A DNA stretch of 64,000 bases from positions 35,449 through 99,448 of the forward strand of contig JAHIRY010000038.1 of the NCBI GenBank assembly GCA_018818405.1, read 5' to 3'. This DNA is from Patescibacteria group bacterium. Lineage in GTDB: Bacteria > Patescibacteriota > Patescibacteriia > UBA11705 > JABHMO01. The number at the start of each line of letters is the position of its first letter. The first letter of the stretch is position 1. A program made the position numbers and the translations under genes. Of this stretch, positions 3,664 to 30,800 are shown piece after piece. The notes under the pieces are model-generated. The model was given only the letters and a program-made list of their open reading frames with translations. It was not told the origin of the DNA and did no database searches.

Positions 3664-3806
3664 TTTTTAAACTTTTCTTCACCCCAAAAATTGCTTATAA
3701 AATAAAATTTATTAGCTATCACCGTTAACATCTAACAATGCCCCAAAATGAATAAACAAAAAAAGAGGCTCAAAATTGCTGGGAATATTGGGATTGCGAT
3801 ATTGAA

Positions 3807-4040: not shown

Positions 4041-4097
4041 AAAATAAATCCACATTTCAAAATGTCCGAACCGATTTTTTATAATTTTAAATAATCA

Positions 4098-4817: not shown

Positions 4818-4833
4818 AAAATAACGGCAACTT

Positions 4834-5307: not shown

Positions 5308-5323
5308 TAAATTATTCTTTCTT

Positions 5324-5761
5324 ATGAATATAAAAAAAATACTGGCGCCAAATTTTTTCTCTCTTCTCGGAATTTTTGCGATTATTGCCGCTTATCTCGC
5401 GATTCCTTTTTCAATGGAACTGAAACAAAAACTTTTTCCCGCCATTGCCGTACTGGCGATTTTATTTTTTCTCCTCGGAATAGCATTGCTTGTCATGACG
5501 ATAAAATCAAAAACAAAAGGCAAACTCAAATTATTTCTTATTTTCACCGGAGCATCGGCAATCGCTTTTCCCGTCAGCGTCATTCTGCACAATGTCATTT
5601 ACGGATTGTTCATTCATTTCTTCGGAGAAAATTTCTGGGGAAACGGCGGAGACGAACCTGTTTTTTTCATTTTGGCGACAATGGTTTGTCCGATAATTTT
5701 TCTCATCGGAGCGATCGGAAGTTCGATTATTTTTTTCAAACAAAATAAAAAATTTTCATAA
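5324..5761 (+). CDS. hypothetical membrane protein; ORF from 5258, likely start is MNIKKIL at 5324
   Basis: hydrophobic ORF; upstream extension overlaps the previous gene. Confidence 0.5.
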   Translation: MNIKKILAPNFFSLLGIFAIIAAYLAIPFSMELKQKLFPAIAVLAILFFLLGIALLVMTIKSKTKGKLKLFLIFTGASAIAFPVSVILHNVIYGLFIHFFGENFWGNGGDEPVFFILATMVCPIIFLIGAIGSSIIFFKQNKKFS

Positions 5762-5807
5762 CACCGCCGTCCCGCTTATCAAATTTTAGAAATAGTTGCA
5801 AACAGCC

Positions 5808-5850
5808 AAAATAAAAAACTCGGACAAATAATTTCCGAGTCTTTTTGTTT
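5808..5850. terminator. bidirectional intrinsic terminator
   Basis: A-run, ACTCGGA-loop-TCCGAGT hairpin, CTTTTTGTTT. Confidence 0.65.
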
Positions 5851-5856
5851 AAAAAA

Positions 5857-7128: not shown

Positions 7129-7281
7129 AAAAATTTGACAAAATAAAACATTTATTTCATTGTTTTATCTAATTTTATTTAATTAAATATATCAAATGAA
7201 AAAATAAAATTCAAGCGCCAAGCTCTTCAAAAATCATAAAAAAAATGTTATGATAGGGACATTACTTTCACATGACTTAAT

Positions 7282-7683
7282 ATGATTATCCATTTCTACA
7301 AATTCATCAACAATATTAAATCAAGTCCGGCCAGGAAAAACAAATTGCTTTTGATTTCCACCGGCATTGGCCTCGTACTAAACGGATTGATTTGGGCGTT
7401 AATTCTCCTAAAACTCCGACCGGTCGTGAGCCATCTTCCGGCTGACCAGGCATTCATTCCCCTGCATTACAACATTTATTTGGGAGTTGATTCCTATGGC
7501 CGCTGGGAAAAACTTTTTCTTTTGCCCGGAGCCGGAATATTATTTTGGTTTGTTAATTCCCTGTTCGCGGCGATTTTATTCAGCAAAAAAGAAATTCTCA
7601 GTTATTTTTTATCACTAACCTCAACGATTCTTCAAGTATTTCTATTGATCTCAACTATTTTTATAGTTCTAATTAACATCTAA
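7282..7683 (+). CDS. hypothetical membrane protein
   Basis: 133 aa, 3-4 TM helices, immediately upstream of mraY. Confidence 0.5.
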   Translation: MIIHFYKFINNIKSSPARKNKLLLISTGIGLVLNGLIWALILLKLRPVVSHLPADQAFIPLHYNIYLGVDSYGRWEKLFLLPGAGILFWFVNSLFAAILFSKKEILSYFLSLTSTILQVFLLISTIFIVLINI

Positions 7684-7697
7684 ACAATTTTATAATT

Positions 7698-8747
7698 ATG
7701 GAAACTTCCATTGTATTCAAAATCGGAGTACTTAGCATTTTATCTTTTCTCATAGCTTTTTTTTGCACTCCGTTGCTTTCTCATTTTCTCTATAAATTCA
7801 AACTGGGAAAACAAATTCGCGACGCAAAAGAAACTCCGATTTTTTCCAATTTGCACAAAGAGAAAGAAGGCACGCCGACAATGGGAGGAATTCTGATCTG
7901 GGGAGCGACACTGATTATCGCATTAACATTTTATATTTTGCATTTTTTCTTTCCCGGATCTTTTCTCGGAGATTTGAATTTTCTGACGAGAGGCCAGACG
8001 CTTTTGCCGCTCGGAGCGCTCATCATTGCCGCCATTCTCGGACTTGTTGACGATTATCTGGGAGTAAAAAAAATCGGACCCAAAGGAGGCGGACTGGGAA
8101 TGCTTTACCGGCTCGGACTTTACGCAGTCATCGCTCTTGGCGGCGCTCTCTGGTTTTATTTCAAACTTGGCTGGGATGTTTTCCATGTTCCTTTTGTCGG
8201 AAATTTTGAAATCGGATTTTGGTATCTCCCGCTTTTCATATTTATCATTGTGGCCACCGCTTTTTCCGTCAATGAAACAGACGGACTCGACGGATTGGCC
8301 GGAGGAACATTGGCCACCGCTTTTGCGGCTGAAGGCGCGATCGCTTTTGCGCAGGGAAAATTCGAGCTGGCCGCTTTTTGCGGAGTGATCATGGGAGCTC
8401 TGATCGCTTTTCTCTGGTTCAATATCAATCCCGCCAGATTTTTTATGGGAGACACCGGCGCGATGAGCCTCGGAATCGTGCTCGGTATTATTGCAATGCT
8501 CACAAACACCGCATTGCTCTTGCCGATCATCGGATTTATTTTTGTAATAGAATCATTGTCCGTCATTATTCAAATATTATCAAAAAAAATTCGCGGCAAA
8601 AAAGTTTTTCTATCCGCTCCCATTCACCATCATCTGCAAGCCATCGGCTGGTCGGAAACAAAAATAGTAATGCGTTTCTGGCTGATTTCCTCCATTACCG
8701 CGGTCATCGGCGTTGTAATATTTTTATTGGACAAAGGGTGGTATTAA
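7698..8747 (+). CDS. mraY: phospho-N-acetylmuramoyl-pentapeptide transferase
   Basis: GTPTMGG, DDYLGV, NETDGLDGLA signature motifs. Confidence 0.9.
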   Translation: METSIVFKIGVLSILSFLIAFFCTPLLSHFLYKFKLGKQIRDAKETPIFSNLHKEKEGTPTMGGILIWGATLIIALTFYILHFFFPGSFLGDLNFLTRGQTLLPLGALIIAAILGLVDDYLGVKKIGPKGGGLGMLYRLGLYAVIALGGALWFYFKLGWDVFHVPFVGNFEIGFWYLPLFIFIIVATAFSVNETDGLDGLAGGTLATAFAAEGAIAFAQGKFELAAFCGVIMGALIAFLWFNINPARFFMGDTGAMSLGIVLGIIAMLTNTALLLPIIGFIFVIESLSVIIQILSKKIRGKKVFLSAPIHHHLQAIGWSETKIVMRFWLISSITAVIGVVIFLLDKGWY

Positions 8748-8869: not shown

Positions 8870-10207
8870 ATGAAAAAATTTCCCAGTTTCAAAAACAAAA
8901 AAATTCTCATCCTCGGACTCGGTTTGCTCGGACGCGGAATCAAGGATGCTATTTTTTTTGCGGAAAAAGGAGCTGACGTTAGAATTACGGATTTGAAGAC
9001 AGCTGATCAACTGAAAGAATCATTGGAAAAATTGAAAAAATATAATTTTAAATTCACTCTGGGCGAACACAAGGAGCAAGATATTTTGGAAGCTGATCTT
9101 ATTATTCGCAACGCCGCTGTTCCCGCATCTTCCGAATTTTTAAAATTTGCAAAAAAGAAAAAAATTCCGGTTGACATGGATGAATCTTTGTTCGCCGAAT
9201 ATTGTCCTTGTCCGATCATCGGCATTACCGGCACCAGAGGCAAGAGCACCACAACCGCGCTGATCGGAAAAATTTTGCAAAACAATCTGGAATTTTTAAA
9301 AAGAAAAAATGTTTATGTGGCGGGCAACATAAAAGGAGAAGCCACGCTTCCGCTGATCGACAAAGTGACAAAAGATGATTTGGTTGTTCTCGAACTTTCC
9401 AGCTGGCAACTCCAAGGATTCGGCCGAAAAAAAATCAGTCCCCATATTTCGATTGTCACCAATATTTATCCGGATCATCTCAATTCCTACAAAAACATGA
9501 GAGAATACGCCAATGACAAAAAATTTATTTTTCTTTTCCAGAAAAAAAAGGACTTCTGCATTTTGAATGAAAAAAATCCTTACACAAAAAAAATGGGACC
9601 GGAAGTAAAATCAAAATTGATCTGGTTTTCAAAAAAAGATGTGCCAAAAAATTGGAAATTAACAATGCTCGGAAAACATAATTTAGAAAACGCGTCCTCC
9701 GCCATGGCAGTGGGAAAAATTCTCGGACTTTCAAAAAAACAAATGCAATCAAGCATCTCTGAATTTCCCGGTCTGGAACATCGGCTTGAATTTGTAAAAA
9801 AATTGAATAATGTGAACTTTATAAACGACACAACCAGCACCACTCCCATTGCCGGCCAAAAAGCGCTCGAAGCCATTCCCGGACCAATCATTCTCATCGC
9901 CGGCGGCGCGAGCAAAAATTTGATATTAAAAGATTTCGCGAAAACAATAGTAAAAAAAGCGAAAAGCGTTATTCTTCTCGACGGAAATGCCACGGACGCG
10001 CTGGAACGCGATATCAAATATTTTGGCGGCGATCATCTGATCATCGGACGCTTCAACGATTTCAATGAAGCTGTGACGCGAGCGTATGACCATAGCTTGC
10101 CCGGCGATACTATTTTATTGTCTCCCGGTTGCGCCAGTTTTGGATTGTTTGTCAATGAATTTGACCGCGGAGAACAATTCAAAAAAATAGTTAACAAACT
10201 TCAATAA
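8870..10207 (+). CDS. murD: UDP-N-acetylmuramoylalanine--D-glutamate ligase
   Basis: N-terminal Rossmann GLGLLGRG, GITGTRGKSTTT P-loop; stop overlaps the ftsW ATG (TAATG). Confidence 0.9.
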   Translation: MKKFPSFKNKKILILGLGLLGRGIKDAIFFAEKGADVRITDLKTADQLKESLEKLKKYNFKFTLGEHKEQDILEADLIIRNAAVPASSEFLKFAKKKKIPVDMDESLFAEYCPCPIIGITGTRGKSTTTALIGKILQNNLEFLKRKNVYVAGNIKGEATLPLIDKVTKDDLVVLELSSWQLQGFGRKKISPHISIVTNIYPDHLNSYKNMREYANDKKFIFLFQKKKDFCILNEKNPYTKKMGPEVKSKLIWFSKKDVPKNWKLTMLGKHNLENASSAMAVGKILGLSKKQMQSSISEFPGLEHRLEFVKKLNNVNFINDTTSTTPIAGQKALEAIPGPIILIAGGASKNLILKDFAKTIVKKAKSVILLDGNATDALERDIKYFGGDHLIIGRFNDFNEAVTRAYDHSLPGDTILLSPGCASFGLFVNEFDRGEQFKKIVNKLQ

Positions 10208-11328
10208 TGCTTAAATTTAAAAAAACATCAGGCTATCACGCGCCAGATTATGTTTTGATTGCCGCCTTCGGATTACTCGTCTTTCTCGGCATTATCATAT
10301 TGTCTTCCGCCGGAGCTGCCATCGGATATCAAAAATTTTCCGACAGCTATTATCTGGTAAAGCATCAAATATTCTACGGACTTTTGCCGGGAATTGCTTT
10401 GTTTTTTCTTTTCTCGAAAATCAATTATCAAATTTGGAAAAAACTGACGCTTCCACTGCTGGTAATTTCCATTCTTCTGCTCATCATTGTTTTTATTCCC
10501 GGAATCGGCGCTGAATACGGAACAGCGAAAAGCTGGATAAATCTGGGAAATTTTTCTTTTCAGCCGGCAGAGCTGGTAAAGCTGACTTTTTTGCTTTACT
10601 TGGCAACATGGCTGGAAAAAAGAGGAATTTTTGGCGTCAAAGATTTTTATTCCGGATTTTTGCCTTTTTTATTTTTGATCGGCGTGATTTCCATTCTAAT
10701 GCTCTTGCAACCGGACATGGGAACCTTGACAATCATAATTTTCATGTGCATTTCGGTTTTCTTCGCATCCGGCGCAAAATTCAAACATGTCGCTTCATTG
10801 CTCATGGCCGGAGCGCTGGCGATTTATCTGTTGATCGTCAAATCTCCGTATCGCGCGGCGAGGCTAACCACTTTTCTCCATCCGGAGCTCGATCCGCAAG
10901 GAATCGGCTATCATATCAACCAAGCTTTTCTGGCAATCGGATCCGGCGGATTTTTCGGCCGAGGATTCGGACATTCCAGACAAAAATTTCTTTATCTTCC
11001 GGAAGTCACCGGCGATTCCATTTTCGCGGTAATGGCCGAGGAGCTCGGATTTTTCCTCTGTCTGTTAATCGTCGGACTTTACATTTTAATTTTTCTGCGC
11101 GGATTGAATATTGCAAAAAAATCTCCCGATCAATTCGGGAAATTAATTGTAATCGGCGTTCTGAGCTGGATTACCTTTCAATCATTTTTTAACATTTCCT
11201 CAATGCTCGGACTCCTGCCCATGACCGGCGTGCCTCTTCCATTCATCAGCTACGGCGGTTCTGCGCTGGCCGTGGGAATGGCCGCTTTCGGCATTGTCAC
11301 AAATATTTCAAAACAAACGCAAGAGTGA
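10207..11328 (+). CDS. ftsW: SEDS-family peptidoglycan polymerase FtsW/RodA
   Basis: 10-TM SEDS architecture, conserved PEVTGDSIFA and C-terminal GGSA motifs; dcw context. Confidence 0.85.
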   Translation: MLKFKKTSGYHAPDYVLIAAFGLLVFLGIIILSSAGAAIGYQKFSDSYYLVKHQIFYGLLPGIALFFLFSKINYQIWKKLTLPLLVISILLLIIVFIPGIGAEYGTAKSWINLGNFSFQPAELVKLTFLLYLATWLEKRGIFGVKDFYSGFLPFLFLIGVISILMLLQPDMGTLTIIIFMCISVFFASGAKFKHVASLLMAGALAIYLLIVKSPYRAARLTTFLHPELDPQGIGYHINQAFLAIGSGGFFGRGFGHSRQKFLYLPEVTGDSIFAVMAEELGFFLCLLIVGLYILIFLRGLNIAKKSPDQFGKLIVIGVLSWITFQSFFNISSMLGLLPMTGVPLPFISYGGSALAVGMAAFGIVTNISKQTQE

Positions 11329-15200: not shown

Positions 15201-15331
15201 TACCTGTCAAACGGGGAGGAAAGAGATTGAGAGATTGAGAGATTCAGTAAATGAATAATTTTAGAACTAAAAATTACTCAATCTCTCTATCTCTAAATCT
15301 CTCAGTATCTCAATCCCACCTTCCGTCAAAC
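15201..15331. mobile_element. MITE-like hairpin element (~110 bp) with arms built from GAGATT hexamer repeats, flanked by a 7-bp direct repeat GTCAAAC
   Basis: GAGATTGAGAGATTGAGAGATTCAGTA ... TACTCAATCTCTCTATCTCTAAATCTC inverted arms; GTCAAAC at both ends. Confidence 0.45.
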
Positions 15332-16221
15332 TATTTGGAAATCAACAAAATCCGCTTTTGTCCTTCCAATATTTTCACGGCCTTTTCCGAGTCGCTCAGA
15401 TTAGACTCGTACATGCGGATCGGCGAACCGTTTTTGTCCGGCGGCAAGTCATGAATCGCGTTCATTATAACATCTTGCTTAAATTTAAAACCGTTTCCCT
15501 TTGTGCGAGTGCCCGGATCATTGGTAATAAAATATTTGCCGTCATATCCGCGAATTACCAAATAATGAAAAATCGGCCCGAGGCCGGAATAATACGGTCC
15601 ATTAAGCTCTCTGCCGGCGGTCGGAACAATCACAATCGAATTATCAGCCAATGCTTTTTTAATGGAATCAATGGAAACATCATCTCTTATCTCCGCTTTC
15701 AATCCGAAATATTCTTCAGCCATTTTTTTCGATTCATCCAAAGTCGTATCAGTATATGCTCCGAACATTTTCTTTTCCCACTCAACCAATTTTAAAATTT
15801 CCGTATTTGCAACCGATTCTGAAACTTCTTTTTCTCCCTTAAAATATTTGGCCGCTGAAATCAAGGCCGCTTCTTCGCAAGCTTCCTGATACGGCAATCC
15901 CCAATCGCCGGTCGGAGCTTGAGATACGAAAGGAGCTTTCAAATCCAAACTTTTCGGCAAATCCGATTCATCATCTTGATTCATATTTGCAATATTCGCG
16001 ACAGTTTCTCTGATCGGTTCTGTCACTTTCGCCACGGCTTCAACCGCTTTTTTTACAACAGAAGTTTCCTCTTTTTCCACAGCGACAACCGCGGCTTCTT
16101 CCTTCACTGCGGGAATATTATCAATCTTTGTTTCATTCAAATCAAAATCTGCTTCACTCGTACATCCGGAAAGCAAAAATGCTAAAATTAGAATTCCCAG
16201 GATTGAAATTTCTTTATTCAT
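15331..16221 (-). CDS. lipoprotein with papain-like C39-like peptidase domain (ORF to 16269; likely start is MNKEISIL, lipobox LLSGC)
   Basis: QAPTGDWGLPYQEACEEAAL Gln/Cys block and downstream His/Asn-Asp; signal peptide plus lipobox. Confidence 0.7.
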   Translation of the reverse strand: MNKEISILGILILAFLLSGCTSEADFDLNETKIDNIPAVKEEAAVVAVEKEETSVVKKAVEAVAKVTEPIRETVANIANMNQDDESDLPKSLDLKAPFVSQAPTGDWGLPYQEACEEAALISAAKYFKGEKEVSESVANTEILKLVEWEKKMFGAYTDTTLDESKKMAEEYFGLKAEIRDDVSIDSIKKALADNSIVIVPTAGRELNGPYYSGLGPIFHYLVIRGYDGKYFITNDPGTRTKGNGFKFKQDVIMNAIHDLPPDKNGSPIRMYESNLSDSEKAVKILEGQKRILLISK

Positions 16222-16262
16222 ATTGGATAATATACAACATTTCGTATATTTGCACAAATCGC

Positions 16263-16291
16263 TTGACATTTGGGAATATTTTGGATAAACT
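16263..16291 (+). promoter_or_regulatory. putative promoter TTGACA-17-TAAACT for rpmA
   Basis: hexamers seen 35 nt upstream of rpmA. Confidence 0.4.
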
Positions 16292-16325
16292 GATTAAGCG
16301 ATAAAATAATAATAATTTTAGCGAT

Positions 16326-16607
16326 ATGGCACATAAGAAAGCGGGCGGCAGTACCGCCCTGGGCCGAGACTCTGCCGGACAAAGGCTCGGAATAAAAAAA
16401 TCTGGCGGACAGACGGTAAAATCGGGAAATATCATTGTGCGCCAGAGAGGAACAAAGGTTCATCCCGGTAAAAATGTAATGATCGGCGGCGATGACACGC
16501 TCTTCGCCACATCAGCCGGCAATGTAAAATTCCTGCGCAAAAAAGTCAAAAATTTTACCGGCAAATTGAAAAAACGAATTTTTGTCAGTATTGTAGCGGC
16601 AAAGTAA
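16326..16607 (+). CDS. rpmA: 50S ribosomal protein L27
   Basis: [10 protein letters not shown]...IIVRQRGTK near-universal L27 sequence. Confidence 0.95.
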
Positions 16608-16618
16608 AACTTCTAAAA

Positions 16619-16680
16619 ACAGAGTTAAATCTCTGTTTTTTGTTTGACAAAAAAATGCGGGAGAAAATGTTATTTCTCCC
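16619..16680. terminator. two back-to-back intrinsic terminators, one per strand
   Basis: ACAGAG-TTAAAT-CTCTGT plus T-run for rpmA; A-run plus GCGGGAGA-loop-TCTCCCGC for the minus-strand gene. Confidence 0.6.
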
Positions 16681-16689
16681 GCGTATTAC

Positions 16690-18720
16690 TCATTCAAAGC
16701 ACTGAAAATCCCTGAACCAAATTTCTCCTTCTCCTCGAGGATCGATTTGGCCGGGAATGATATCGATTTCATGATTGCATGAAACATTGGCCGCCCGCCA
16801 ATCATAACAGCTCCATTCATGCGGAGCGATGCAAGCGCAATTGAAATCAATCCACGAATTTCCCCGCAGACAGATCTCATCAATGTCCGAATCGATCACC
16901 GCCGGATTGCCGACCGCGCTCTTGTCCGCGGAATACCACGCATACGCGCGCATTCCCGCCGGACAAGTGATGGTGCAGCGAACCGACAAATCGATTTCAT
17001 CGCTCGCTTCGTTTTCTTCTTCCCGCTCAACTCCTTCATCATCAATCGCTTCTTCCGGCACATTTTCCGCTGATTCAACTTCTTCTTCCGGAGGATTTTC
17101 CAACGCTGGGGATTCTTCTTCAGGCAAAGAAACTTCCTCTTCTTCAACCGGTTCTTCTTCCGACTCCGGTTCTTCATCATCAATCGCTTCTTCCGGCAAA
17201 GATTCTGCCGGTTCTTCCGGAGGATTTTCATTCGGTATTTGAAATTCTTCCTCATCCAGAATCATTGTGCATTGGCCATTGACGCAAGAGCAGTCCGCCG
17301 GACACCAAGATCCGACATCCACCGCTCCATCGCAATCATTGTCCAGTCCGTCGCAAACTTCTTCCGCTCCCGGAAAGATTCGCGCATTGTTGTCATCGCA
17401 ATCGCCTTCTTCAATGCCGGAACCGTCGCCATCCGAATCAGTTGATTCCACCTCGGCAACGCCGGCGACGCTCAGAAGTCCGTCCATCAAACATTGGCTC
17501 GCGCTTTCCATGGAAATCATCTGTCCGAGTGAAGAAACACTCGAATTGAACTGTTCCTCATTTGCGAGCCAATAAACCTGGCGGCTGTATCCCATCAAAT
17601 TGAAAACTTCCCAGCCGTCAAAAGGCATCAATTCTCCATTTCCCGTCACAAAGAAAATCACTCCGCTCCCATAGCCCGGAAGATCGAATGACGGCTTGAT
17701 CAACGTTCCCGCCCGGCTATAGAGAACTCCGCCAAAATTGCAGCGGTTGTAATATTCGGCTCTGGCGACCGGTTCTGCCAGATTGCGGAGCGCTCCGGGA
17801 ATTTTCCATGTATTGAAACTGAATTCCGATGAAAATTGATAGTAAGCGCAAGACTCGCTGTCAGCGCTCTGCCGTTCCATGAGATAAATTCTTGAATTGA
17901 CTTGAAAAACTTCTCTATACGGCTCCCAGGAAATTTCTCCGCCATATTGATAGCAGGAGAGCTCGCGCTGAGAAACCGTCAGAATTCTCTGCCAATCGAA
18001 ATTGTGCGCATTGAAAACATCTTCATCGAAAATCCAAAACGCGCTTCCGCCGATCAGCAGATATACGCGCGGATCACCGGCCACTTTTATCAACGAATCA
18101 TTCGGATGCCAGGAAACCGCATTGTTGTCATCATGGACAACGAGCGCGCTTCTATTGGATGTTCGCCACGAACGGTCAAAATCATCCAATGAATAGCGCA
18201 AAAAAGCGCCGTGCGTTTTTCCCGGATCATGGACAATCAATTCTTCTCCTTCGATGCCGACCGCAACCATGAAATGTCCCAACCTCTGCGGATCCATTTG
18301 GATATTGACTCCGACGATCACCGGATTTCCGGCTGACAATTCATCTCTGATAAAATCAATATTGCTGTTCGCCTGACTGCTGACAAGACTGAACTGGTAA
18401 TAAACCTCCAAAATATCTTTGAGCTGACTGATGGAAGTGACATTTCCGTCGTAATATTCGGCATTTGCCTGAGGAGAAATGTAATCCCAATGGTACAGCC
18501 AATCAACGATGCTCATGGTGTCGCCGGCGGTCGGCTCGAATTGCAGATGGTAGGCCGCAACCATGAGCGCGCTTGTCGGTCCGCAATTCATGTTTTTGTT
18601 CCAATCTCCGGGCGGTGATTGCGGAATGAACGGCGCGCCGTCCAACAACGTTGCTTGCGCTGAGGTTGCTGAAAGCAAAAGACCGATGATGACGGCAAAG
18701 GCGAAAACTTTACGGTTCAT
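16690..18720 (-). CDS. secreted multidomain protein: signal peptide, C39-like peptidase domain, acidic PEE-rich repeats, MopE-like DNDCDG Cys-rich motif, Cys-rich C-terminus
   Basis: QSPPGDWNKNMNCGPTSALMVAAY block; repeats ENPPEE/ESEEEPVEEEE; CDGLDNDCDGAVD; SD CAGGAGAA. Confidence 0.75.
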   Translation of the reverse strand: MNRKVFAFAVIIGLLLSATSAQATLLDGAPFIPQSPPGDWNKNMNCGPTSALMVAAYHLQFEPTAGDTMSIVDWLYHWDYISPQANAEYYDGNVTSISQLKDILEVYYQFSLVSSQANSNIDFIRDELSAGNPVIVGVNIQMDPQRLGHFMVAVGIEGEELIVHDPGKTHGAFLRYSLDDFDRSWRTSNRSALVVHDDNNAVSWHPNDSLIKVAGDPRVYLLIGGSAFWIFDEDVFNAHNFDWQRILTVSQRELSCYQYGGEISWEPYREVFQVNSRIYLMERQSADSESCAYYQFSSEFSFNTWKIPGALRNLAEPVARAEYYNRCNFGGVLYSRAGTLIKPSFDLPGYGSGVIFFVTGNGELMPFDGWEVFNLMGYSRQVYWLANEEQFNSSVSSLGQMISMESASQCLMDGLLSVAGVAEVESTDSDGDGSGIEEGDCDDNNARIFPGAEEVCDGLDNDCDGAVDVGSWCPADCSCVNGQCTMILDEEEFQIPNENPPEEPAESLPEEAIDDEEPESEEEPVEEEEVSLPEEESPALENPPEEEVESAENVPEEAIDDEGVEREEENEASDEIDLSVRCTITCPAGMRAYAWYSADKSAVGNPAVIDSDIDEICLRGNSWIDFNCACIAPHEWSCYDWRAANVSCNHEIDIIPGQIDPRGEGEIWFRDFQCFE

Positions 18721-18753
18721 GGCTATTCTCCTGTTGTCTGTGAGTTTGCCGGG

Positions 18754-19479
18754 TTAAAACCGAAACCAACGAAGAAACGTGTTGAAAACCCGTTTCAATT
18801 CTTCCTGATTCCGGCCGGCGGGAAAAAAGGCAATGTCGTAAATGAAACCGGAACCCTGGACAAAAATTCTCGGTTCTCCGTAATAAATTCCGGAAACCCG
18901 TTTTGCTTGAATTGCGTTCAACTCTTTTCGCACGGGGATGACCAGCTTTTCATGTTCAGTGACAATTCCGCTGTAGATTTCTTCGAAAAATTGATTCCAA
19001 TCAGACACAGTCGTCTGATATACATCCACGCTGATCAAATTGAATTCCGTCGCGTATTTCTCAGAATTCACTTCCACGCTTCCCGACTCTCCGGTAAAAT
19101 AATCCGCCGGCGCCGCGCCTCCCTGAGCAATGAATTTTTCCGTGTCTTTCACTCGGATCGAATAGCGGATGAATTTTCCTCCGCCGCTGTCATTTCCCAG
19201 CAATTCCACTTGCCAACCGGCCGGATACTTGAAATCAAAACGATTGACGGAAAACTGCAGCCAATTGTCAGCCGGAATTGTGTCCGCGGTCAGAGCCGCC
19301 GGAGCGACAGCGTCGCCGAAACGGGTTTGCTTCACTTCTCCCGCTTCCGGCAAAAGCTCTGTCTCGATCTCTTTCTGTTGCCGGCATCCGGCGAGAAAAA
19401 TGAGCGACCAGAAAACGATCACTGTGAAAACCGGCAAATTTTTTTTGAAAGTTGTCATAGCGTTTCTCCTTTTTGCCAA
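18754..19479 (-). CDS. secreted lipoprotein, hypothetical (lipobox LAGC)
   Basis: signal peptide; same operon as the 16690 gene. Confidence 0.6.
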   Translation of the reverse strand: MAKRRNAMTTFKKNLPVFTVIVFWSLIFLAGCRQQKEIETELLPEAGEVKQTRFGDAVAPAALTADTIPADNWLQFSVNRFDFKYPAGWQVELLGNDSGGGKFIRYSIRVKDTEKFIAQGGAAPADYFTGESGSVEVNSEKYATEFNLISVDVYQTTVSDWNQFFEEIYSGIVTEHEKLVIPVRKELNAIQAKRVSGIYYGEPRIFVQGSGFIYDIAFFPAGRNQEELKRVFNTFLRWFRF

Positions 19480-19502
19480 ACAAGTTGTTCAGCTGTTATT
19501 TG

Positions 19503-20159
19503 TTAGTTGCTCCGAGCCAAGGCTCTCCACGGAAATTTATTCATGAGACGATTGACATACGATTGGCTCAAACCTCGGTAAAGCAGAGTCATCTCGTAGG
19601 AAGAACCCTCGCTTTTTGCCATGACGCGAGGCGCGTCCCAATAATGATCTCCGCTCGCATTGAGCAAAGTCACTTCGATTTCTCCGACTTTCGCGACTTC
19701 GTGCGCGCCGGAAAAAGAGGTTCTCAGCATTTTCGATGAATTTACGGAAGCGCCTTCCATTTTTTTGATCAAGAACAAAGAATATTCAGCTGACTTTTTT
19801 CGGCTCTTGTATTCCACCGCGTTCGGTCTGATCAGACAAAACAATGATGACGCTCCGACCTGTTTCACAACATAAATCTGTTTTCCCAAATCCCGCTGTT
19901 GCAGCCACATGACGGGGAAAAGAAAGTTTTGCAATTCAGATTCCTGCCACTGCCGTTCATTGCCGGCAAAAACCGTCGGACTGACATTCTGATCGCGAGG
20001 CAAAATCATATCCGCCTCCGGCGGATCCACTCCTTCCAGAGAAAACCGATCTTCAAAATGCAACTTTCTTCCGATTGTTTTTCCATGGCCTGCGCAGCCA
20101 ATGAAAATCGTTGCAAAAAAAACGAGAGACAAAACCAGCTGAAACTTTTTCATTTCCAT
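19503..20159 (-). CDS. secreted lipoprotein, hypothetical (lipobox FIGC)
   Basis: signal peptide; first gene of a three-gene minus-strand operon. Confidence 0.6.
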   Translation of the reverse strand: MEMKKFQLVLSLVFFATIFIGCAGHGKTIGRKLHFEDRFSLEGVDPPEADMILPRDQNVSPTVFAGNERQWQESELQNFLFPVMWLQQRDLGKQIYVVKQVGASSLFCLIRPNAVEYKSRKKSAEYSLFLIKKMEGASVNSSKMLRTSFSGAHEVAKVGEIEVTLLNASGDHYWDAPRVMAKSEGSSYEMTLLYRGLSQSYVNRLMNKFPWRALARSN

Positions 20160-20459: not shown

Positions 20460-21308
20460 ATGACGAAAAGGCTTGTTCTGATTGATATTGATAATACTCT
20501 GGTCAACATTGATCTGGGATTTGACGGCTGTTCCGCCGACCAAATAAAAATCGCCTTGAGAAAAGCGATGTCAAGCGGACTGACGATAGGATTGCATTCG
20601 GATCGCCCCGCATTTGACCTGTTCGCGATTCACAAAAATCTGGGACTGAACGGTCCTATCATTGCGGAAAAAGGAAACATTCTTCACTTTCCTCCCAAAT
20701 GGGACATGGAGCCGAATCAAGATCACCGGTTTCTCATGTTTCAATTTCTAAAGACCGAACTTCTGAATATTCTGCTCACCGAATTTTCCGATATTGATGT
20801 ATTTGTCGGCAAAAATCAGAAAATGTTTCGCTTTCTGGCGCAAAACAGGCCGGCTGAAAATCGCAAAATTGTTCTGATCAATAATTACCGAAAGCTGAGT
20901 TTGGCTTTCAATGTGTGCGAGCAAGATCCTGAATCGGAAAATTTGTGCATGAATTTGGTGGAACAAACAGCCAAGATTATTCGCAACTTGTTCACTGCAA
21001 TCTTTGAACAAGAGCCGACAATAGAAATCTATCCGGCGACCAGAGCTTGCATCATCCATCTCCGCGATTCCCACAAACGCAATTCTCTGCCAAAACTCTT
21101 CAGACAATACGGCGCGGGACACAAAATTATTATGATCGGCGATTCGGCTTTTGATTTTCTCGGCAAAGACATCACTCACTGCGCAGTGGAAAACGCATCC
21201 GCCGAATACAAAGCTCTTTGCAACTTTATCGCGCAAAAAGACAGAACCTGCGGTGTGATTGAATGCCTGAAATGGATTCAACGAGGAGGCCACCATGGAA
21301 AAAGATAA
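20460..21308 (+). CDS. HAD-superfamily phosphatase (HAD-IIB/Cof-like)
   Basis: motif I LIDIDNTL (DxDxT), motif IV IMIGDSAFD; SD AAAGGAGG. Confidence 0.75.
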   Translation: MTKRLVLIDIDNTLVNIDLGFDGCSADQIKIALRKAMSSGLTIGLHSDRPAFDLFAIHKNLGLNGPIIAEKGNILHFPPKWDMEPNQDHRFLMFQFLKTELLNILLTEFSDIDVFVGKNQKMFRFLAQNRPAENRKIVLINNYRKLSLAFNVCEQDPESENLCMNLVEQTAKIIRNLFTAIFEQEPTIEIYPATRACIIHLRDSHKRNSLPKLFRQYGAGHKIIMIGDSAFDFLGKDITHCAVENASAEYKALCNFIAQKDRTCGVIECLKWIQRGGHHGKR

Positions 21309-22128
21309 ATTGATTCTCATTGATGTTGACGGAACATTGACCGACGCCTCGTATCAAATCACCGACTCCGGAATCACAAGAAAAATAATGGAAATGCAGA
21401 AACAAGGCTGGACAATCGGGCTGAACTCGGATACGCCGTTTTCTCGTTTGGAAGCAAGAGCGCGGGCTCTTCATTTGAATGGACTGCTCATCTGCGAGCT
21501 GGGCAACAGCATTCATCAAATCAATCCGACGCAACTGATTTGGGAAGAACGGCACAAAGAATCTTTTGCCGAGCTGAATGAAAGATTTCAAGAGGCTGCC
21601 AAAAAATCATTCCCGGAAATAATTCGCAGAGAAAACGACCTGAAATTTTCCCTCGAACGCTTCCGGAATGAATTGCTCCCACACGGATCCGAAATCTGGA
21701 TATTGCATCATGCATCCCGCCGGCACAGCTTTGCGTTTCAGCTGATAAAAAAAACGCCGAGAGGCGACATTTTCGTTGACAGACTCCTCATTCGACTGGC
21801 CGAATGCGCGCAACGGCTTTTCCTCGAAATTTTCCATAAAGAGCCGCTTGCCGATGTGAATCACAAATACGGGGTCTGCATCCTGCATCACAAAGATTCA
21901 CGCAAATCAAAAGCCGCGGCCGCCGTTTTCGCGATCCTCGGCTATGAAAAAATATATATGATCGGAGACAGCATGTCCGACTTTCTCAATCATCCATGCG
22001 TTGTGCAATGCGCGGTCGGCAATGCCTCAATCGAATACAAACGAGAATGCTCCATTGTTGCCAAAAATCACCTCGCCTCAGGTGTAATCGAATGCCTGGG
22101 GCAAATCAAAGAAATGAAAGACGAATAA
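21295..22128 (+). CDS. HAD-superfamily phosphatase, tandem paralog (overlaps the upstream gene by 14 nt)
   Basis: LIDVDGTL, YMIGDSMSD; colinear similarity to the 20460 protein. Confidence 0.75.
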   Translation: MEKDKLILIDVDGTLTDASYQITDSGITRKIMEMQKQGWTIGLNSDTPFSRLEARARALHLNGLLICELGNSIHQINPTQLIWEERHKESFAELNERFQEAAKKSFPEIIRRENDLKFSLERFRNELLPHGSEIWILHHASRRHSFAFQLIKKTPRGDIFVDRLLIRLAECAQRLFLEIFHKEPLADVNHKYGVCILHHKDSRKSKAAAAVFAILGYEKIYMIGDSMSDFLNHPCVVQCAVGNASIEYKRECSIVAKNHLASGVIECLGQIKEMKDE

Positions 22129-22170: not shown

Positions 22171-22269
22171 CGCTGATATTAAATAAACAAATTTCACGCA
22201 TGATTGACGTAAAAAAATGAAAATGATAAATTTCAAATGGAAATAACCTGCGCACAAGGAGGAAAAAGC

Positions 22270-22923
22270 ATGCGCAATGCGAAATTTGTTCCGGTCATTC
22301 TTTTCTTTGCGGCGACCATGTTCGCCGCTTGCACAGACGAAAATGACAATTCGAAAAAAAAAGCAAGCGAAGGTGAAGCAGAATCGGTCGGCTCGATGAC
22401 AATCATTTCCATGCCGGTGGAAGACGCGGAAATCATTCTCAATGAAGAGGAAACCGGCCACCGCACGCCGCAGACTTTTCACAATCTTTCGCTCGGTCTT
22501 CACCAAATAGAACTGAAACTCGCCGGTCGGCGGCAAGCTGATATTCCGCTGGCGGTTTCTCTGACCGCCAAGGAGGAAGACTCCGATACTCCGCAATTAT
22601 TGAATGTTGAAATTTTCCTGTACCGAGAACTCTCGGGGGGATGGAAAGATGAATCCGGCGCGCGCGTCGAGGCGGAAATGGAAATTGTGACCGAGGAATA
22701 TGAATATCTGTGTCCTGACACGCCGCTCAGCGTTCGCGGATTCGATCCTGTCGGATCGCTCTGCGTGGAAAAAGACGATACGCTCTCACTCTGCAAAACG
22801 CATGACGCGAAATGCGGCGAGCAGTTTGCTCAAGGCAGGATCGCTGATGACGGCAATGTCGTGGAATTCACGGTAGCCGAATCTGAAAAAGTGATTCGCT
22901 ACACCAGACTCCCGACAATGTAA
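22270..22923 (+). CDS. lipoprotein with PEGA-like beta-sandwich domain (ORF from 22237; SD indicates the 22270 start)
   Basis: signal plus lipobox FAAC; MTIISMPVEDAEIILNEEETGHRTPQTF...HQIELKL PEGA-like pattern; paralog of 24046. Confidence 0.7.
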   Translation: MRNAKFVPVILFFAATMFAACTDENDNSKKKASEGEAESVGSMTIISMPVEDAEIILNEEETGHRTPQTFHNLSLGLHQIELKLAGRRQADIPLAVSLTAKEEDSDTPQLLNVEIFLYRELSGGWKDESGARVEAEMEIVTEEYEYLCPDTPLSVRGFDPVGSLCVEKDDTLSLCKTHDAKCGEQFAQGRIADDGNVVEFTVAESEKVIRYTRLPTM

Positions 22924-24045: not shown

Positions 24046-24756
24046 ATGAAGACGAGAACCATGTTTCTCTGTGTCCTGTTCCTTTTTTTGACAACCGTAG
24101 CCGCATCCTGCGGCGAAGACCCCACCAACGCGCCGGGCGAAGGCGAAGGCGAAGGCGAAGGCGAGGGTGAAGGCGAGGGCGAAGGCGAAGGCGAGGGCGA
24201 AGGCGAGCAGCTCGGCTCGCTTACCGTCACCTCCGCGCCGCACGACGGCGCGCAGATCATCATGGATGGCGTGGACACCGGATTCGTCACCCCGCACACG
24301 TTCGACGAGATCAGTGTGGGACGGCACGAGGTCGAGCTCAAGCTCGACGGCCGGATCCAGGCCTACATCCCGCAGGAGGTCGTCCTGACCTCCGGCAAGG
24401 AAGACAGCACCGTGCCGCCAAGCGCCACGGCCGAAATCTTTCTGTATCTGGATCTGACGGGAAAATGGTATGAAGCGGAAATAAATCGGACGACCGAAGC
24501 AGTGGTTTTCCCAAGTGCCAGACTCCAACAACCGGAAATCTCCTGCCCAACCACGGAGATGGCGGCAGGCAAATTTCCCCTATACAACACACTGTGCATC
24601 GAGAGAGACGACTCTCTCTCTCTCTGCAAAGACCATGCCAGCGACTGTTATGGAGCCGAAGTCCGCGGCTCCGTTCAGGAAAACGGCACGAAGATCGAAG
24701 TCACAGATTTCTTTTTTTCTCCGCCGAGGGTACTACACTACACTCTGGTGCAGTGA
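24046..24756 (+). CDS. PEGA-domain lipoprotein paralog with (GE)13 low-complexity linker, strikingly GC-rich (~60%)
   Basis: signal plus lipobox AASC; LTVTSAPHDGAQIIMDGVDTGFVTPHTF aligns colinearly with the 22270 protein; SD AAGGAGG. Confidence 0.75.
   Translation: MKTRTMFLCVLFLFLTTVAASCGEDPTNAPGEGEGEGEGEGEGEGEGEGEGEGEQLGSLTVTSAPHDGAQIIMDGVDTGFVTPHTFDEISVGRHEVELKLDGRIQAYIPQEVVLTSGKEDSTVPPSATAEIFLYLDLTGKWYEAEINRTTEAVVFPSARLQQPEISCPTTEMAAGKFPLYNTLCIERDDSLSLCKDHASDCYGAEVRGSVQENGTKIEVTDFFFSPPRVLHYTLVQ
24136..24207 (+). repeat. (GGCGAA/GGCGAG)n hexanucleotide tandem repeat encoding (GE)n
   Basis: about 11-12 tandem hexamers seen directly. Confidence 0.85.
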
Positions 24757-24831: not shown

Positions 24832-27800
24832 CTACGGTAATACTATAATTTTTCCATCGAAAGAAGTCCCCGGCTCTCCGTGCTCATCCAGTGGATCACA
24901 CAATGGAAAATCACCTTCATTATAACACCCATCCGCACCCCCGCACGTCCCATTACACCACCCCCAATTATCCGTCACAATCACCCGCGGAATATACTGG
25001 CAGGCGGGATTGCCTTGGTATGTTGTTCTGCAGTAATTCGGGTCTGCGCCGGCAGTGCCGCAATCCTTCAAAACAGGATCAGACAAATTACAAGTATAAG
25101 TATTATTGTAAGAGAAATACGATTCCATGCATGCATCAGTCGTGTCGCCGAAACGATCATCCTTTTGATCGGAACATTTCCCGGTGAAGAAACATCTGCT
25201 CGGATCGCTTCCCTCTTCACATCGCGGATCGTCAGCATCATAGCACGCGGAATCATCAGAGCAAGCCAGACCGGAAACTCCGTTGCATATTCCCAACGGT
25301 TCATTGGCCGGTCTCTGACATCGAGGCTTATGATTTTGGTACTTTCCATCAACGCCCACTCCCTGAACTCTCTCACCCCAATCGATCGTCACATTTCTTA
25401 TCGGCATCTGATCATCATTCGCCCAAGCATAGAAATTCATTGTCACTGCCAACTGACCATCCAGACTTACAATATCGCCGCTCGTCTGTCCGCGAATGGT
25501 CATCGTATTGGGAATAGCGCCATACAAAACATTTCCTTTCGCGTCAGACCTGCCACTGGGTATTGCGGCCGCAATCATCGGAACACCGACTTTTTGCTCA
25601 TTACTGATATCCCAAATTTTATTAGGATTATTCAAGTAGCCTATTCCATCGGCATTGCTCGGAATGTTAATAATATTTGAGCAGGATGCGCTCGGATCGC
25701 TTTTCATTTCCGGAGGATTTGTCGCGACCACTTCTTTTAGAATAACCGTGCCGACATACCCAAATGGAGTATGCTCATATTTTTCTATTGGGCAACTATT
25801 ATTCTCCAATGTCCTGCCGACATAACATTCCGCAGATATTTCCTGCTGTGCAAAGTTATAACTGTCTATGAAAAGCCAATGTTCTGCCAAAATGCTCCGA
25901 TCAGCTTTCTGCCATATGCAATTCGCCTCATTGCGTTCAATATTTGGCAAATTGGCAGTGCAATAAACACGATTTCCAGCATTGCCGACTACCGGAGCGG
26001 TATTCACACATTCGGTATCCCAGAAGCAAGGATTGCCGGAATTCGCTCCCGATTGATTATTGCAATGGCGAAGAGTAAGAATATTGCATTCCAACGGATA
26101 TTGAGCGGTTGTACAAACATTTGAATCACTGGTGCAAGACAATCCGTTTATTTCAGGATGAATGCTGGTGCAGGTTTTTTCTTCAATATTTTGAATTTTC
26201 ATTTCGTAATAAGTCTTTGCCGCAGCAAAATACTTTTTCAAAGCATCAATACTTTGATAAACAATTCCGCCCTCAGGATAGTTCTCTTCCTGATTGCACC
26301 CAGCACCCAAAAATAAATTGTAAATAGTCTCGCCAATACCGCCCGTCAATGCCAAGGCTCCAAGCGGATTGCACTTTGGCTGATCAGGAATTTGAACGGA
26401 TTTATAAATTTCATTAGTAAATGCTTTGTTTTTTCCATTCTCATCGGATACTCCGACAGCAGTATCACAGCTTTGCTTTGATATTTCGCCGATCGCCGCA
26501 TTCGTATTGCCGGCTGCATCCTTGTACCAGCCAGCCGATTGATCAGCGGGCATATTTATCGGTTTACATTGATATGTCATTTTAAACCAATCTTCATCCT
26601 CTAGGCTACACTCATCTGTAGCGCCATCATGGTCGAATATACCGCCATCATGTTCGAATGAATTCGCTCCGCCGATATTATAATTCTTATCACAACTGGG
26701 ACGTTCAAACTTCTCGCCACCGCAATCTCTGGTCCAACAAGATGCTGTATTTCCAATGCCTCCAAACGGATCAGTATTCGCATTAATTGTTCCGGCTGAA
26801 ACATTGGAGCTTCCCACCAAGCGATCCCATAATTTGTCCGCTGTCCACCGAGTATAAACATTTGGATTGCCGCTCACGCAAGCGGAACCGTTTCCATCGC
26901 ATTCTATTCCGGCAGTACTGGAAGCTAGGCCGGCCGGCAAACAATTTTCACGAACTTCTTTTGTTTCTCCATTACACGCATCCAGAGCCCCTCCATCGCA
27001 ATCCCTATACCCTTCTTCCGTTTGATTATAATTCTGTCTCTTTTCCCAATTACTGCTTTTCAGACAATAGTAAGGACTGCCATCGCTAAATCCATAATCT
27101 TGCGGCCAGAAGCCGGCGGAATCATATTGATTCTGCAAATCCTGCAATCCGGCCAACGCTTCCGTCGGATACCAAGTAATGCAAGGATGTTCTTCTTGTT
27201 TGTTATTTTTCGGCAGACTGATGTCCTCTTGCAGACAATATCCTTCCCAGCCATGATAATCTATGGCAGTGCCTTTCTTTTTCATGCATAACCCCGGTTC
27301 ATTTCCTTTTGAGATAGGTTTTGAAGAATTGAGAGAACACTGGATAGAAGAACACATTGTTTTATTATTTATCTTTACCATGGGAGAACTATCAATTTGC
27401 GGATAATCAAAATCATCGCACTGACATTGAATATCAGGTGAATCCTGACAAAAGCCTTGTTCCGGATCTGCTGGCGAATATAATTCTGTTTTCGGCACAT
27501 ATTTTGTGATCGCCCCACCACCATATTGAACCTCTCGATAATAACAACCGTAGTCTTCATTTTTATTAATTTCCGCAAAATCCACATCCAGCCAAGAAAT
27601 ATTCGCGTTTACGTATAAATCAGTGCCTGCAATACCGGCTGGAAACGGCGAATCATCCTTCGGATAAGCACGGCATTCCGGAGCTGCAGCTTCTTGAAAT
27701 GTTCTTTCTGATTCCGAGGTCTGCACACAAATTCCACTCAAACATCGACAATTTTCTCCGCTTGGATTTGCAACAGTACAAGCATCCGTGCAATCACTAT

Positions 27801-30800
27801 CCTGTTCACAAGAGGTATCGGTTAATTGATTTACCAATCTAAAATCTTTTTCTTTATAAACTTGCCCGCGAACTTCTTCACAACTAACGACTGCCTCAAT
27901 CCTGCAAATATTGCCTAAGGAAATGCAGTTTCGTCCTCCGCTACAATCATCGGCTGCTTCGCAACGGCCATATTCTCTTTCTCCACCGCAATAACTTCCG
28001 CAATCAGCATCCGTGGAACACAACCCTTCGTTCGGATTACCAAAACAATATTGTTGACCGCAATCATTGTCATTCACACAAAGATTGCCTGAAGTTACTC
28101 CTCCGCATCTCTTGTCCGGTTCAACCCCGCGTCCCTGCCTCAAATCAAAAGAATTATAAAAATTTACCGGCGCCATATCCGGAATCGCCATTCCGGTATA
28201 ATCGAGCGAAGACCAGCTGACATTTCTATTCTGATAACCGTCAGTTTCATCCGTTCCCTTCAAAGGTTTGTTCAATGACAATAAATTATTATTATCTTCA
28301 CCGACAATGAAATGCGCGCACTTCAATGTATCTTCCGCCGGACTGAGCTTGTCGCAAACTCCGACATCATCGCAAACCTCAATATATTTATTTTTATTCG
28401 AATCCCACGCCCAGTGACTGGACTTGCAATCGTACCAAGCCGCGCATTCGCGATCGCGGACGACTTTTACTATGGAATTCGCATCATTTTTTGAAGCAAT
28501 CAATTCAAATGTACAGGCAATCTGTCTATCAGTACATGTATTAATCTGCTCGGCGCGCGCTTCTCCTGCGCAAGTCAAATAATCTTTTTCAGCATTCACA
28601 CAAGATTCGACTTTTTTACAATAATCATCTTCAGTACAATCACCCACCCGCCCCAGAGCATAACTATCAAACGTCGAAGCATTCTTTGGCGGAACAGCAC
28701 TTTGTTTATCATTTCCTTCAAAATATGTTAAATATCCCTGCCATTTCAAATCAGGTTCGCCATTGGCATTTAACATAGAGGTATCATTCATCAAAATACA
28801 ACCTTCTTTACGACTGACATCTGAACAGGAAGTCTTGTCTATGTCTTCATTATTAACATAATAATAAGCTTTTCCTTTGTCTGACAAAGTTTTATCAGTG
28901 GGATCCACGAACGCGGTGCACAAATCCGCGCTTGACTTGCAGATACCGGCCCAGCCTGAGAAATCTTCATCATTTATTCGAATAATCTGCGAATTTCCAT
29001 CTTCATAATAATTCTTTGTCTCGCATAGTACATCCGGATCATTATCATTCAGTTTCTTTTTGAACCATCCAAATATACTCTCAGAACCTTGCTGAGCTTT
29101 TCTGTATTCGCAAGTTTTATCACCCGGATCCTTAAAATAATAAGTTTCACCTTTTACTCCCTTGAATTCCTCACATCTCAAATCACTATTAGCGCACAGA
29201 GGACTGTTCTCACTATCAAAAGTATCAGGATCCAGTTTGTAAAATACATTGTTCCATTTGTCCTGGGATGGAATATAATTCCCCTCAGCATCCACCATCA
29301 AAGTCGGCAATCCCAGAGCCGTACAACCCTTTTCCGTGTTTTTACATTGTTTATCTTTTGTGTTAACGAGATAAATCAATGAATCTTTTTCTATTTCTTG
29401 AAGGTAGCAGACACCATCGTTCCAATTTCCATCCAAATAACCACACATGTTTTCATAAGTCTGTGAAAGAGCGGGAGGTTCACCGCCAACCTTTGCACGA
29501 ACTTGGAATGTACATGCTTGCAAATTTTCATTCACAACGGCTGCAGTTCCCGGTATCTGGAAAAAATTATTCGTTGGAACTGCCTCCCATTTACTCATAT
29601 AAGAGGAACACAATTCAACATTCAACGGAATTTTCTTGTATCCTTGTTCAAATGGAGACGAACTGTTCTTCGTATCAATCATCGTCTCGCAACCGACCTT
29701 GTCAGCCGAACAGATATTGGTAAAGTTTTTCAGATAATGAGTATTCTTGCCGCTGTCGCGATATTCGCGGCAACCCAGCTGAGCTTGCGGAATTTGTCTG
29801 TCAGCTTCATTTGCCGGAGTATGGGTCAGCTCATTGTCGCAGATCGCCGGAGTACTCCATGAATTTTTGATTAAATATTTGAGATCATTTACTTTTGTGA
29901 TTTTGAAATTGTCGATGTAAAAAGTTCTTTCGCACTGGGACGCGCGTATGCCTATAACACCGGAGGCATAAGTCTCATCCACACTCAAATTAAAAGTATG
30001 AAACTGCCAATCAGCATTAACCGTGCCGTCACCCAATAAAAATTTTCGATCTCCGGTGTTTATATTTTCAACCGGCCTCACATCAACATTGAAATTCGTG
30101 GGATCGCCTTTGATCCAAAAAGAAACAACATAATCACCGACTGCTGATAAAAGCGCATTTTTTGTATATATTCTTGGTGATTCAACACAACTCAATCCCT
30201 CAATCCCGTTAACAGACTCTATTTCAGTCTTCTCTTCCACCATTAAATACTGCCCATCCGCTTGTGTCGTAAGCGACATTGGACTTCCTTGCAAACTAGT
30301 TACCTCTCCGGTCGCAAAATTATTCTCATAAACAATTTCCTCATCACCGCTGAAATTGCCTTTGTATTCTCTGCAGCCGGCGGCAGGCGCTGAACATTTC
30401 TTGCCTTCGCCCGGAATTGCCATGAAAACGCATTCGCCAGTGTTCCACTGCCCCTGCCTCAGTTCGCATTGAGCCTGATCCGCGTATTGCAATGTTCGGC
30501 GATAAGGATGACAATTTTCCGAACAAGTCAGAGTCTTTGAATACAAACGATAAGAAACTCTGCCGGCATCATCGTAAAATTCACGGCAGTCGGGATTTGA
30601 TTTTACAGCGAATATTTCCGCGTTGCACCGGGTTAGATTTTCTTCCTCTGCAATCGTCATTGCCGGAGCATTTCCTCCGAGTTCTTTTTTCAATACATAA
30701 TTCTGCAATTGATAACCGGAAACTCCGCCTCCGACCCAAGTATAATAATTGGCGCACTGAGCCTCGCCCTCGGGAAGTTTCTGGCATTGCCTCAATTCGG

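Follow-up and report, generated by a model that had tools for sequence, protein, structure and literature searches.

A modular secreted C39-like putative peptidase of Patescibacteria with a C39-to-M23 domain swap at a conserved locus

We analysed a stretch of 64,000 nt (hereafter the window) from a Patescibacteria group bacterium, focusing on positions 15331-20159, where a 676-aa modular protein with a papain-like cysteine peptidase domain is encoded together with two lipoproteins upstream and a smaller C39-type lipoprotein downstream (Table 1). A preliminary description of this cluster had listed five minus-strand genes. The open reading frame (ORF) listing reproduces both of its outer boundaries exactly, with four genes on the minus strand and one on the plus strand, the fifth gene being rpmA. 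By inspection, each of the four minus-strand proteins begins with a signal peptide or a lipobox, so their description as secreted proteins holds. The first three genes are separated by short intergenic gaps and each is preceded by a Shine-Dalgarno-like sequence, a terminator-like hairpin with 6 GC pairs in its 10-bp stem and a T-run follows directly past the stop codon of the 676-aa gene, and the plus-strand rpmA lies between this group and the remaining minus-strand gene. The locus is therefore not one transcription unit; it consists of a three-gene operon, which encodes the 676-aa enzyme and two lipoproteins, and of a paralogue transcribed on its own.

Two of the ORFs extend beyond the likely gene starts. 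The ORF of the second operon gene reaches a TTG at 19479 and would encode 241 aa, but the start is Met8, giving 234 aa and matching an identical NCBI hypothetical protein. The ORF of the small C39 lipoprotein reaches 16269 (312 aa), and its likeliest start is Met17, giving 296 aa as in an identical NCBI entry named 'C39 family peptidase'. Rfam and tRNA scans of the window returned no family and no tRNA.

Table 1. Features of the locus. Positions are those of the window, except in the last three rows, which use the coordinates of the related loci named. pLDDT, predicted local distance difference test score.
Feature	Position	Strand	Evidence or remark
Putative lipoprotein, 218 aa, lipobox FIG/C	19503..20159	-	Operon gene 1; ORF, AAGGAG ribosome-binding site
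Lipoprotein, 234 aa, lipobox LAG/C	18754..19458	-	33-nt gap before large peptidase gene
Predicted secreted modular peptidase, 676 aa, Sec-type signal peptide ending AQA/T	16690..18720	-	ORF and ribosome-binding site
Papain-fold C39_2 catalytic domain, residues 25-196	18133..18648	-	Gln34, Cys46, His149, Asp165
Middle domain, residues 200-414 (215 aa)	17479..18123	-	pLDDT 82-96; EccB-type repeat in first ~60 residues
MopE-type Cys/Asp-rich putative metal-binding module, residues 440-468	17317..17403	-	PF11617, 48.1 bits (cutoff 27)
Glu/Pro-rich acidic disordered linker, ~residues 485-575	16996..17268	-	pLDDT ~30
C-terminal disulfide-rich beta-sandwich, residues 578-676	16693..16989	-	Probable binding module
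Intrinsic-terminator-like hairpin, end of three-gene operon	16657..16682	-	10-bp stem, T-run
rpmA, ribosomal protein L27	16326-16607	+	Pfam, 114 bits
Membrane-anchored C39_2 lipoprotein, 296 aa, lipobox LLSG/C	15331..16221	-	Separate transcription unit
C39_2 domain of the 296-aa lipoprotein	15514-15939	-	PF13529, 32.7 bits (cutoff 24)
Syntenic orthologue with M23 in place of C39_2, L018	7359-9308
Syntenic orthologue with M23 in place of C39_2, L076	3232-5106
Syntenic orthologue with M23 in place of C39_2, L077	6001-8706

The 676-aa protein scores 43.5 bits against Peptidase_C39_2 (PF13529, clan CA), well above the gathering cutoff (Pfam gathering cutoffs are 24 bits for PF13529, 22 bits for PF03412 and 27 bits for PF11617), and the 296-aa protein exceeds it as well. 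Both carry the QxPxGDW...C(G)P..AL block that had first drawn attention to them, in the form QSPPGDWNKNMNCGPTSAL in the large protein and QAPTGDWGLPYQEACEEAAL in the small one. The catalytic domain shows the papain-like alpha+beta fold of Peptidase_C39_2, in an AlphaFold2 (AF2) model computed for the 676-aa protein from 23 sequences (mean pLDDT 73, with 75-96 in folded domains and below 50 in linkers). Both profile and structure thus bear out the proposed C39-like identity. Structural neighbours include the pseudomurein endoisopeptidase PeiR, phytochelatin synthase, BtrH/CtaG and the papain-fold toxin-immunity pairs 9l5u, 9jdd and 8ssm. The peptidase domain of PCAT1 aligns with the stretch around His149 and Asp165, at residues that we take to be the catalytic His and Asp of PCAT1; the canonical C39 model, PF03412, reaches only 15.8 bits (E 0.013) on the 676-aa protein and so stays under its cutoff.

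The predicted catalytic residues are strictly conserved. Gln34, Cys46, His149 and Asp165 are invariant across 22 homologues of the large protein, and Gln101, Cys115, His219 and Asp235 across 22 homologues of the small protein, which range from Falkowbacteria to Peregrinibacteria. At 25% identity (E 8e-8), the small C39_2 domain is a paralogue of the large enzyme's catalytic domain. One family member of 577 aa (P0251) has Ser in place of the catalytic Cys ('RNSGLAV') and retains the His and Asp motifs; it may use serine as its nucleophile or else be inactive.

The Met1 start of the 676-aa ORF has a ribosome-binding site, and homologues align from this residue. An otherwise identical NCBI entry of 535 aa (P0001, 'putative metal-binding motif-containing protein') begins at Met142, and the public annotation therefore lacks both the signal peptide and the catalytic Cys46.

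Beyond the catalytic domain, Pfam offers little guidance: neither the middle domain nor the C-terminal domain, nor either upstream lipoprotein, has a match even at E values up to 10, and no LysM, SH3b, PG_binding or SLH domain is recognised. The model of the middle domain matches EccB1 in Foldseek (5cyu, E 1e-4). A profile of this domain, run against 1.84 billion representative proteins, returned 3184 clusters, only about 30 of which contain the whole domain; the rest match profile positions 6-65. This unit of about 60 residues, which occupies residues ~205-265 of the 676-aa protein (nt ~17926-18108), usually occurs in 3-16 tandem copies, frequently at the C-terminus. Among 69 repeat proteins scanned, the Pfam partners are Ig-like, S8, SpoIID, Amidase_2, CHAP, Glucosaminidase, M23, LGFP, CAP and nuclease domains, and the EccB Pfam model recognises 3 of the 69, in agreement with the Foldseek match. 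From the number of clusters, the partner domains and these EccB matches, we consider the 60-aa repeat a common surface or wall-associated module of Patescibacteria, as judged from sequence. It looks like an undescribed surface-repeat family that Pfam catches only occasionally, via EccB. The loci designated L022-L075 in our genome scan contain the repeat only, without the large-protein family or its gene order. EccB repeats have been suggested to bind peptidoglycan, only from a weak resemblance to PlyCB (PMC4769845).

The middle domain is followed by a short cysteine- and aspartate-rich module. The sequence CDGLDNDCDG, at residues 456-465, falls within the PF11617 match, so the MopE-like motif of the preliminary description is there; similarity to the body of MopE, with its copper site, is not. 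The only similarity of the motif in the PDB is to residues 3-44 of the MopE structure 2VOV (E 0.03), and the copper site of MopE presumably lies outside these residues. With the match restricted in this way, the motif says nothing about copper, and we rejected copper binding as a role because MopE and the 676-aa protein share only this short motif. Family members have from none to about 10 copies of the module, a variability that fits a structural stalk.

Residues 481-578 (98 residues) contain 37 Glu and 12 Pro. This is the region described earlier as acidic repeats: its acidic, Glu/Pro-rich character is evident, but Tandem Repeats Finder reports no tandem repeat, and there is only a single imperfect duplication of 63 nt (81% identical, copies 138 nt apart). 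The linker is poorly conserved among homologues, in which both its length and its sequence vary. The roughly 100 residues that follow are modelled as a small beta-sandwich (pLDDT 94.6). This C-terminus is indeed Cys-rich, with 8 Cys in the final 95 residues; six are invariant among homologues and the other two are lost jointly in two of them, a covariation that points to disulfides. In an M23-type relative of 791 aa (P0275), the Cys-rich domain is replaced by CBM_4_9 (52 bits), suggesting that this C-terminal slot serves ligand binding.

Full-length homologues of the 676-aa protein number about 27, at 35-48% identity. About 16 species-level genomes encode full-length relatives (34-48% identity); they bear the labels Falkowbacteria, Kuenenbacteria, Parcubacteria group or Patescibacteria, with some mislabelled metagenome-assembled genomes besides. 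All of them have the same gene order. Opposite-strand HAD hydrolase genes (in most loci) are followed by an optional gene of the 218-aa type (7 loci), a gene of the 234-aa type (13 loci) and the large peptidase gene; after it come rpmA on the opposite strand, the small C39 lipoprotein, prs, rrf2, nifU, nifS and FtsW-MurD-MraY. The locus is thus a vertically inherited core-genome context and not a mobile island.

The genome neighbourhood contains several further features. Two overlapping tandem HAD-family Hydrolase_3 genes (20460-22128, plus strand) lie just upstream of the operon in the window, with a homologue likewise placed in most related loci. In one relative, L001, a D-Ala-D-Ala ligase (Ddl) gene is inserted beside the small C39 gene (11321-12343), and in another, L002, an IS200/IS605-type Y1 transposase lies between the large peptidase gene and rpmA (9997-10659). 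Two small PEGA-domain proteins are encoded on the plus strand of the window at 22237-22923 and 24046-24756, the first with a lipobox-like N-terminus, and a PEGA protein is encoded upstream in relative L005 too. The window also has two giant minus-strand ORFs: one of 2973 aa (24832-33753) without a Pfam match, and one of 2822 aa (48489-56957) that begins with a T4SS_pilin match at its N-terminus and continues with Ig-like, TIG and Laminin_G_3 domains. In relatives L002, L005 and L006 the locus is likewise flanked by giant genes. GC skew is negative in all 2-kb bins of the window (cumulative -4.75), and the minus strand carries most of the long ORFs.

The most informative of the relatives is the protein that occupies the same slot in L018. 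It shares the middle domain, acidic linker and C-terminal domain with the 676-aa protein, and its N-terminal domain is a different one with HxxxD and HxH motifs. Among the proteins containing the whole middle domain, 8 cluster representatives have an N-terminal domain of this type. A profile of the domain matches solved M23 peptidases (6jn7, E 1.3e-5) with both metal-binding motifs, HxxxD and HxH, aligned, and Pfam Peptidase_M23 places two of the eight over its cutoff (~35 bits), the others scoring 18-27 bits. Two further M23-type proteins, P0259 and P0254, are encoded on contigs with the same neighbours: the upstream lipoprotein, rpmA, rrf2, nifU and FtsW-MurD. Sequence and synteny together indicate one orthologous gene with two versions, the catalytic domain being all that distinguishes them. 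The M23 family consists of peptidoglycan endopeptidases, which act on cross-links rather than on leader peptides. Given an M23 domain on an otherwise shared chassis, C39_2 is most simply read as doing the equivalent job on wall peptides.

The lipoprotein gene directly upstream follows the same division. A homologue of the 234-aa lipoprotein (~25-35% identity) is present in 13 of 17 related C39-type loci, always immediately upstream of the large gene, and M23-type loci instead have a different lipoprotein of ~230-240 aa, the members of this second group being 23-40% identical to one another. Their similarity to the 234-aa profile is confined to the signal peptide, the linker and the first strand (the first ~87 profile positions). 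In L077 the lipoprotein-hydrolase pair is duplicated in tandem (2766-8706); one copy, of 436 aa, has lost the HxxxD and HxH metal ligands and has no C-terminal domain, and this degenerate M23 protein may be likened to LytM-type regulators. A specific regulator, inhibitor or immunity protein would be expected to behave in this way, switching together with the catalytic domain and staying linked to it. We propose that the catalytic domain may have its cognate regulator, inhibitor or anchor in the 234-aa lipoprotein. Homology searches gave no further clue to its function: a word-indexed search returned the protein itself only, and a PDB profile search with its alignment gave signal-peptide noise only. 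The 218-aa lipoprotein has no Pfam, NCBIfam or PADLOC match; its homologues (30-42% identity) occupy the corresponding slot in 7 of the roughly 16 related loci. Overall, NCBIfam yielded weak sub-threshold matches only, and PADLOC none.

Taken together, the M23 swap and the occurrence of the middle-domain repeat in numerous wall hydrolases and surface proteins point to an enzyme that hydrolyses peptides of the cell wall. Our preferred interpretation is a secreted, wall-targeted cysteine peptidase that acts on peptidoglycan peptides, with a cognate lipoprotein and a membrane-tethered paralogue; we consider it about evenly balanced between right and wrong. The 676-aa protein would be exported via its Sec signal peptide, and its N-terminal Cys-His-Asp domain would cut peptide bonds, most likely in peptidoglycan of either the cell's own wall or that of a host. 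The middle domain, built around the EccB-type repeat, may retain the enzyme at the wall, the MopE-type module and the ~90-residue acidic spacer would form a stalk, and the disulfide-bonded beta-sandwich at the C-terminus may bind a surface ligand, probably a glycan. The transcript of the enzyme would also encode one or two membrane lipoproteins, with that directly upstream serving as regulator, inhibitor or anchor, and the 296-aa paralogue would be a membrane-tethered version acting near the cell's own membrane.

Several further observations are consistent with this interpretation. The signal peptide and lipoboxes, together with the covarying Cys pairs of the C-terminal domain, support export. 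The locus is near FtsW-MurD-MraY, and in one relative it has received the Ddl insertion. The difference between the lipoproteins of C39-type and M23-type loci, and the duplication of the pair in L077, are consistent with a partner role for the upstream lipoprotein. C39_2 is also listed, from Pfam surveys, among the catalytic domains of Gram-positive phage endolysins (PMC8223927), and the N5 domain of mycobacteriophage LysA matches 3ERV (PMC3314691), which lends modest support from the literature. The pseudomurein endoisopeptidase PeiR, as a structural neighbour, is a further precedent.

Other results weigh against a peptidoglycan substrate or leave parts of the scheme conjectural. We found no biochemical peptidoglycan cleavage in the literature for this family or for any C39_2 domain. 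When both C39 domains were compared by tblastn with 50,697 phage records, the sole match was weak and unannotated; no close homologue emerged, and thus no direct link to a named endolysin. Most of the M23 matches fall under the Pfam cutoff. Fusion partners of the 60-aa repeat also include S8, CAP, nuclease and Ig-like domains, and the repeat may be a general surface-retention module. Nearness to cell-wall genes may just reflect an inherited housekeeping gene order, and the role of the lipoprotein is one that we purely infer.

The domain is also compatible with a protease that matures or sheds surface proteins (pilins, S-layer proteins or giant adhesins) or removes leader peptides in the manner of C39 double-glycine leader peptidases. 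The weak PF03412 and PCAT1 matches tie the family to C39, giant surface proteins are encoded nearby, and the 60-aa repeat is fused to S8 proteases as well. We nevertheless find such a role unlikely, as PF03412 stays below its cutoff, none of about 20 loci provides an ABC transporter, a precursor peptide or a sortase-like context, and replacement by M23, given what is established for that family, favours a wall substrate. A role in bacteriocin processing specifically was rejected, since neither the neighbourhood in the window nor the ~20 related loci contain a transporter or a double-glycine precursor.

The wall or surface proteins attacked might instead be those of the bacterium carrying an epibiont, with the enzyme as a host-directed weapon or nutrient-scavenging enzyme and the upstream lipoprotein as its immunity protein. 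The succession of catalytic domain, spacer and C-terminal targeting domain resembles that of bacteriolysins, the structural neighbours include papain-fold toxin-immunity pairs, the lipoprotein switches along with the catalytic domain and the two have duplicated as a cassette, and linker and MopE copy number vary widely among homologues. Yet there is a single copy of the gene, at a fixed place among housekeeping genes and outside any variable or mobile region; no secretion system adjoins it, neither PADLOC nor toxin families give a match, and no experimental host is known for the lineage. We regard this explanation as equally unlikely. Of the original label, a candidate extracellular processing or host-interaction module, the extracellular part is supported; the functional part finds no specific support, given that there is no ABC transporter or double-glycine precursor and that PF03412 is under its cutoff. 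Host interaction is possible. In a bolder form, which we think quite improbable, a secreted C39_2 enzyme with a dedicated lipoprotein inhibitor would be the cassette by which epibionts open the host wall while sparing their own, and the swap to M23 would identify the uncharacterised C39_2 peptidases, widespread among Patescibacteria, as peptidoglycan endopeptidases.

That the papain-fold domain is not a peptide-bond hydrolase at all but a transferase, ligase or glycosidase, such as phytochelatin synthase, BtrH/CtaG or an archaeal C39-like glycosidase, seems very improbable to us, although the first two are structural neighbours and glycosidase activity has been reported for a C39-like protein (PMC13642728).

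Patescibacteria account for a large part of bacterial diversity, and how they build, remodel and breach cell walls is poorly understood. C39_2 domains are common in the group without an established substrate, and the exchange for M23 on an unchanged chassis offers a testable substrate hypothesis. The analysis also delimits three modules that Pfam covers marginally or not at all (the 215-aa middle domain, the 60-aa repeat and the Cys-rich beta-sandwich) and brings a possible enzyme-partner lipoprotein pair to notice. If the wall hydrolase interpretation is wrong, the region comes down to already-annotated C39 family peptidases.

The closest known systems include members of Peptidase_C39_2 itself, such as the putative C39-like peptidase 3ERV of B. 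anthracis and YvpB of B. subtilis, to which the large protein adds the 215-aa EccB-repeat domain, the MopE module, the acidic spacer and an unclassified Cys-rich beta-sandwich. Unlike the C39 bacteriocin-processing domains of PCAT1 and ComA (PF03412), it has no transporter fused or nearby, is predicted to be exported rather than cytoplasmic and has no double-glycine substrate nearby. The endolysin C39-like domains, including LysA N5, belong to the same domain family and occur in peptidoglycan-cleaving proteins (PMC3314691, PMC8223927), whereas the gene described here is chromosomal and vertically inherited, with no close relative in the phage records searched.

The M23 sister proteins (P0252, P0254, P0259, L018 and others) share the chassis, the genomic slot and the presence of an upstream lipoprotein. 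LytM/lysostaphin-type M23 endopeptidases follow the same logic of a catalytic domain combined with targeting domains, but rely on zinc where the present enzyme would use cysteine, have an unrelated catalytic fold and carry targeting domains such as SH3b or LysM that those described here do not resemble. Homology or structural similarity connects the 60-aa repeat of the middle domain with the periplasmic repeats of EccB from type VII secretion (PF05108; 5cyu, 4kk7); in contrast to EccB, the large protein lacks a transmembrane anchor, is not accompanied by other ESX components and has a different domain arrangement. With the copper-binding surface protein MopE of Methylococcus (2VOV) it has in common the short Cys/Asp-rich PF11617 motif. 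The C39_2 family is already known, and in NCBI the small protein already carries a C39 peptidase label, as do several relatives of the large one; what is new here is the conservation of the locus, the modular architecture of the large protein and the exchange of C39 for M23 with an accompanying change of lipoprotein.

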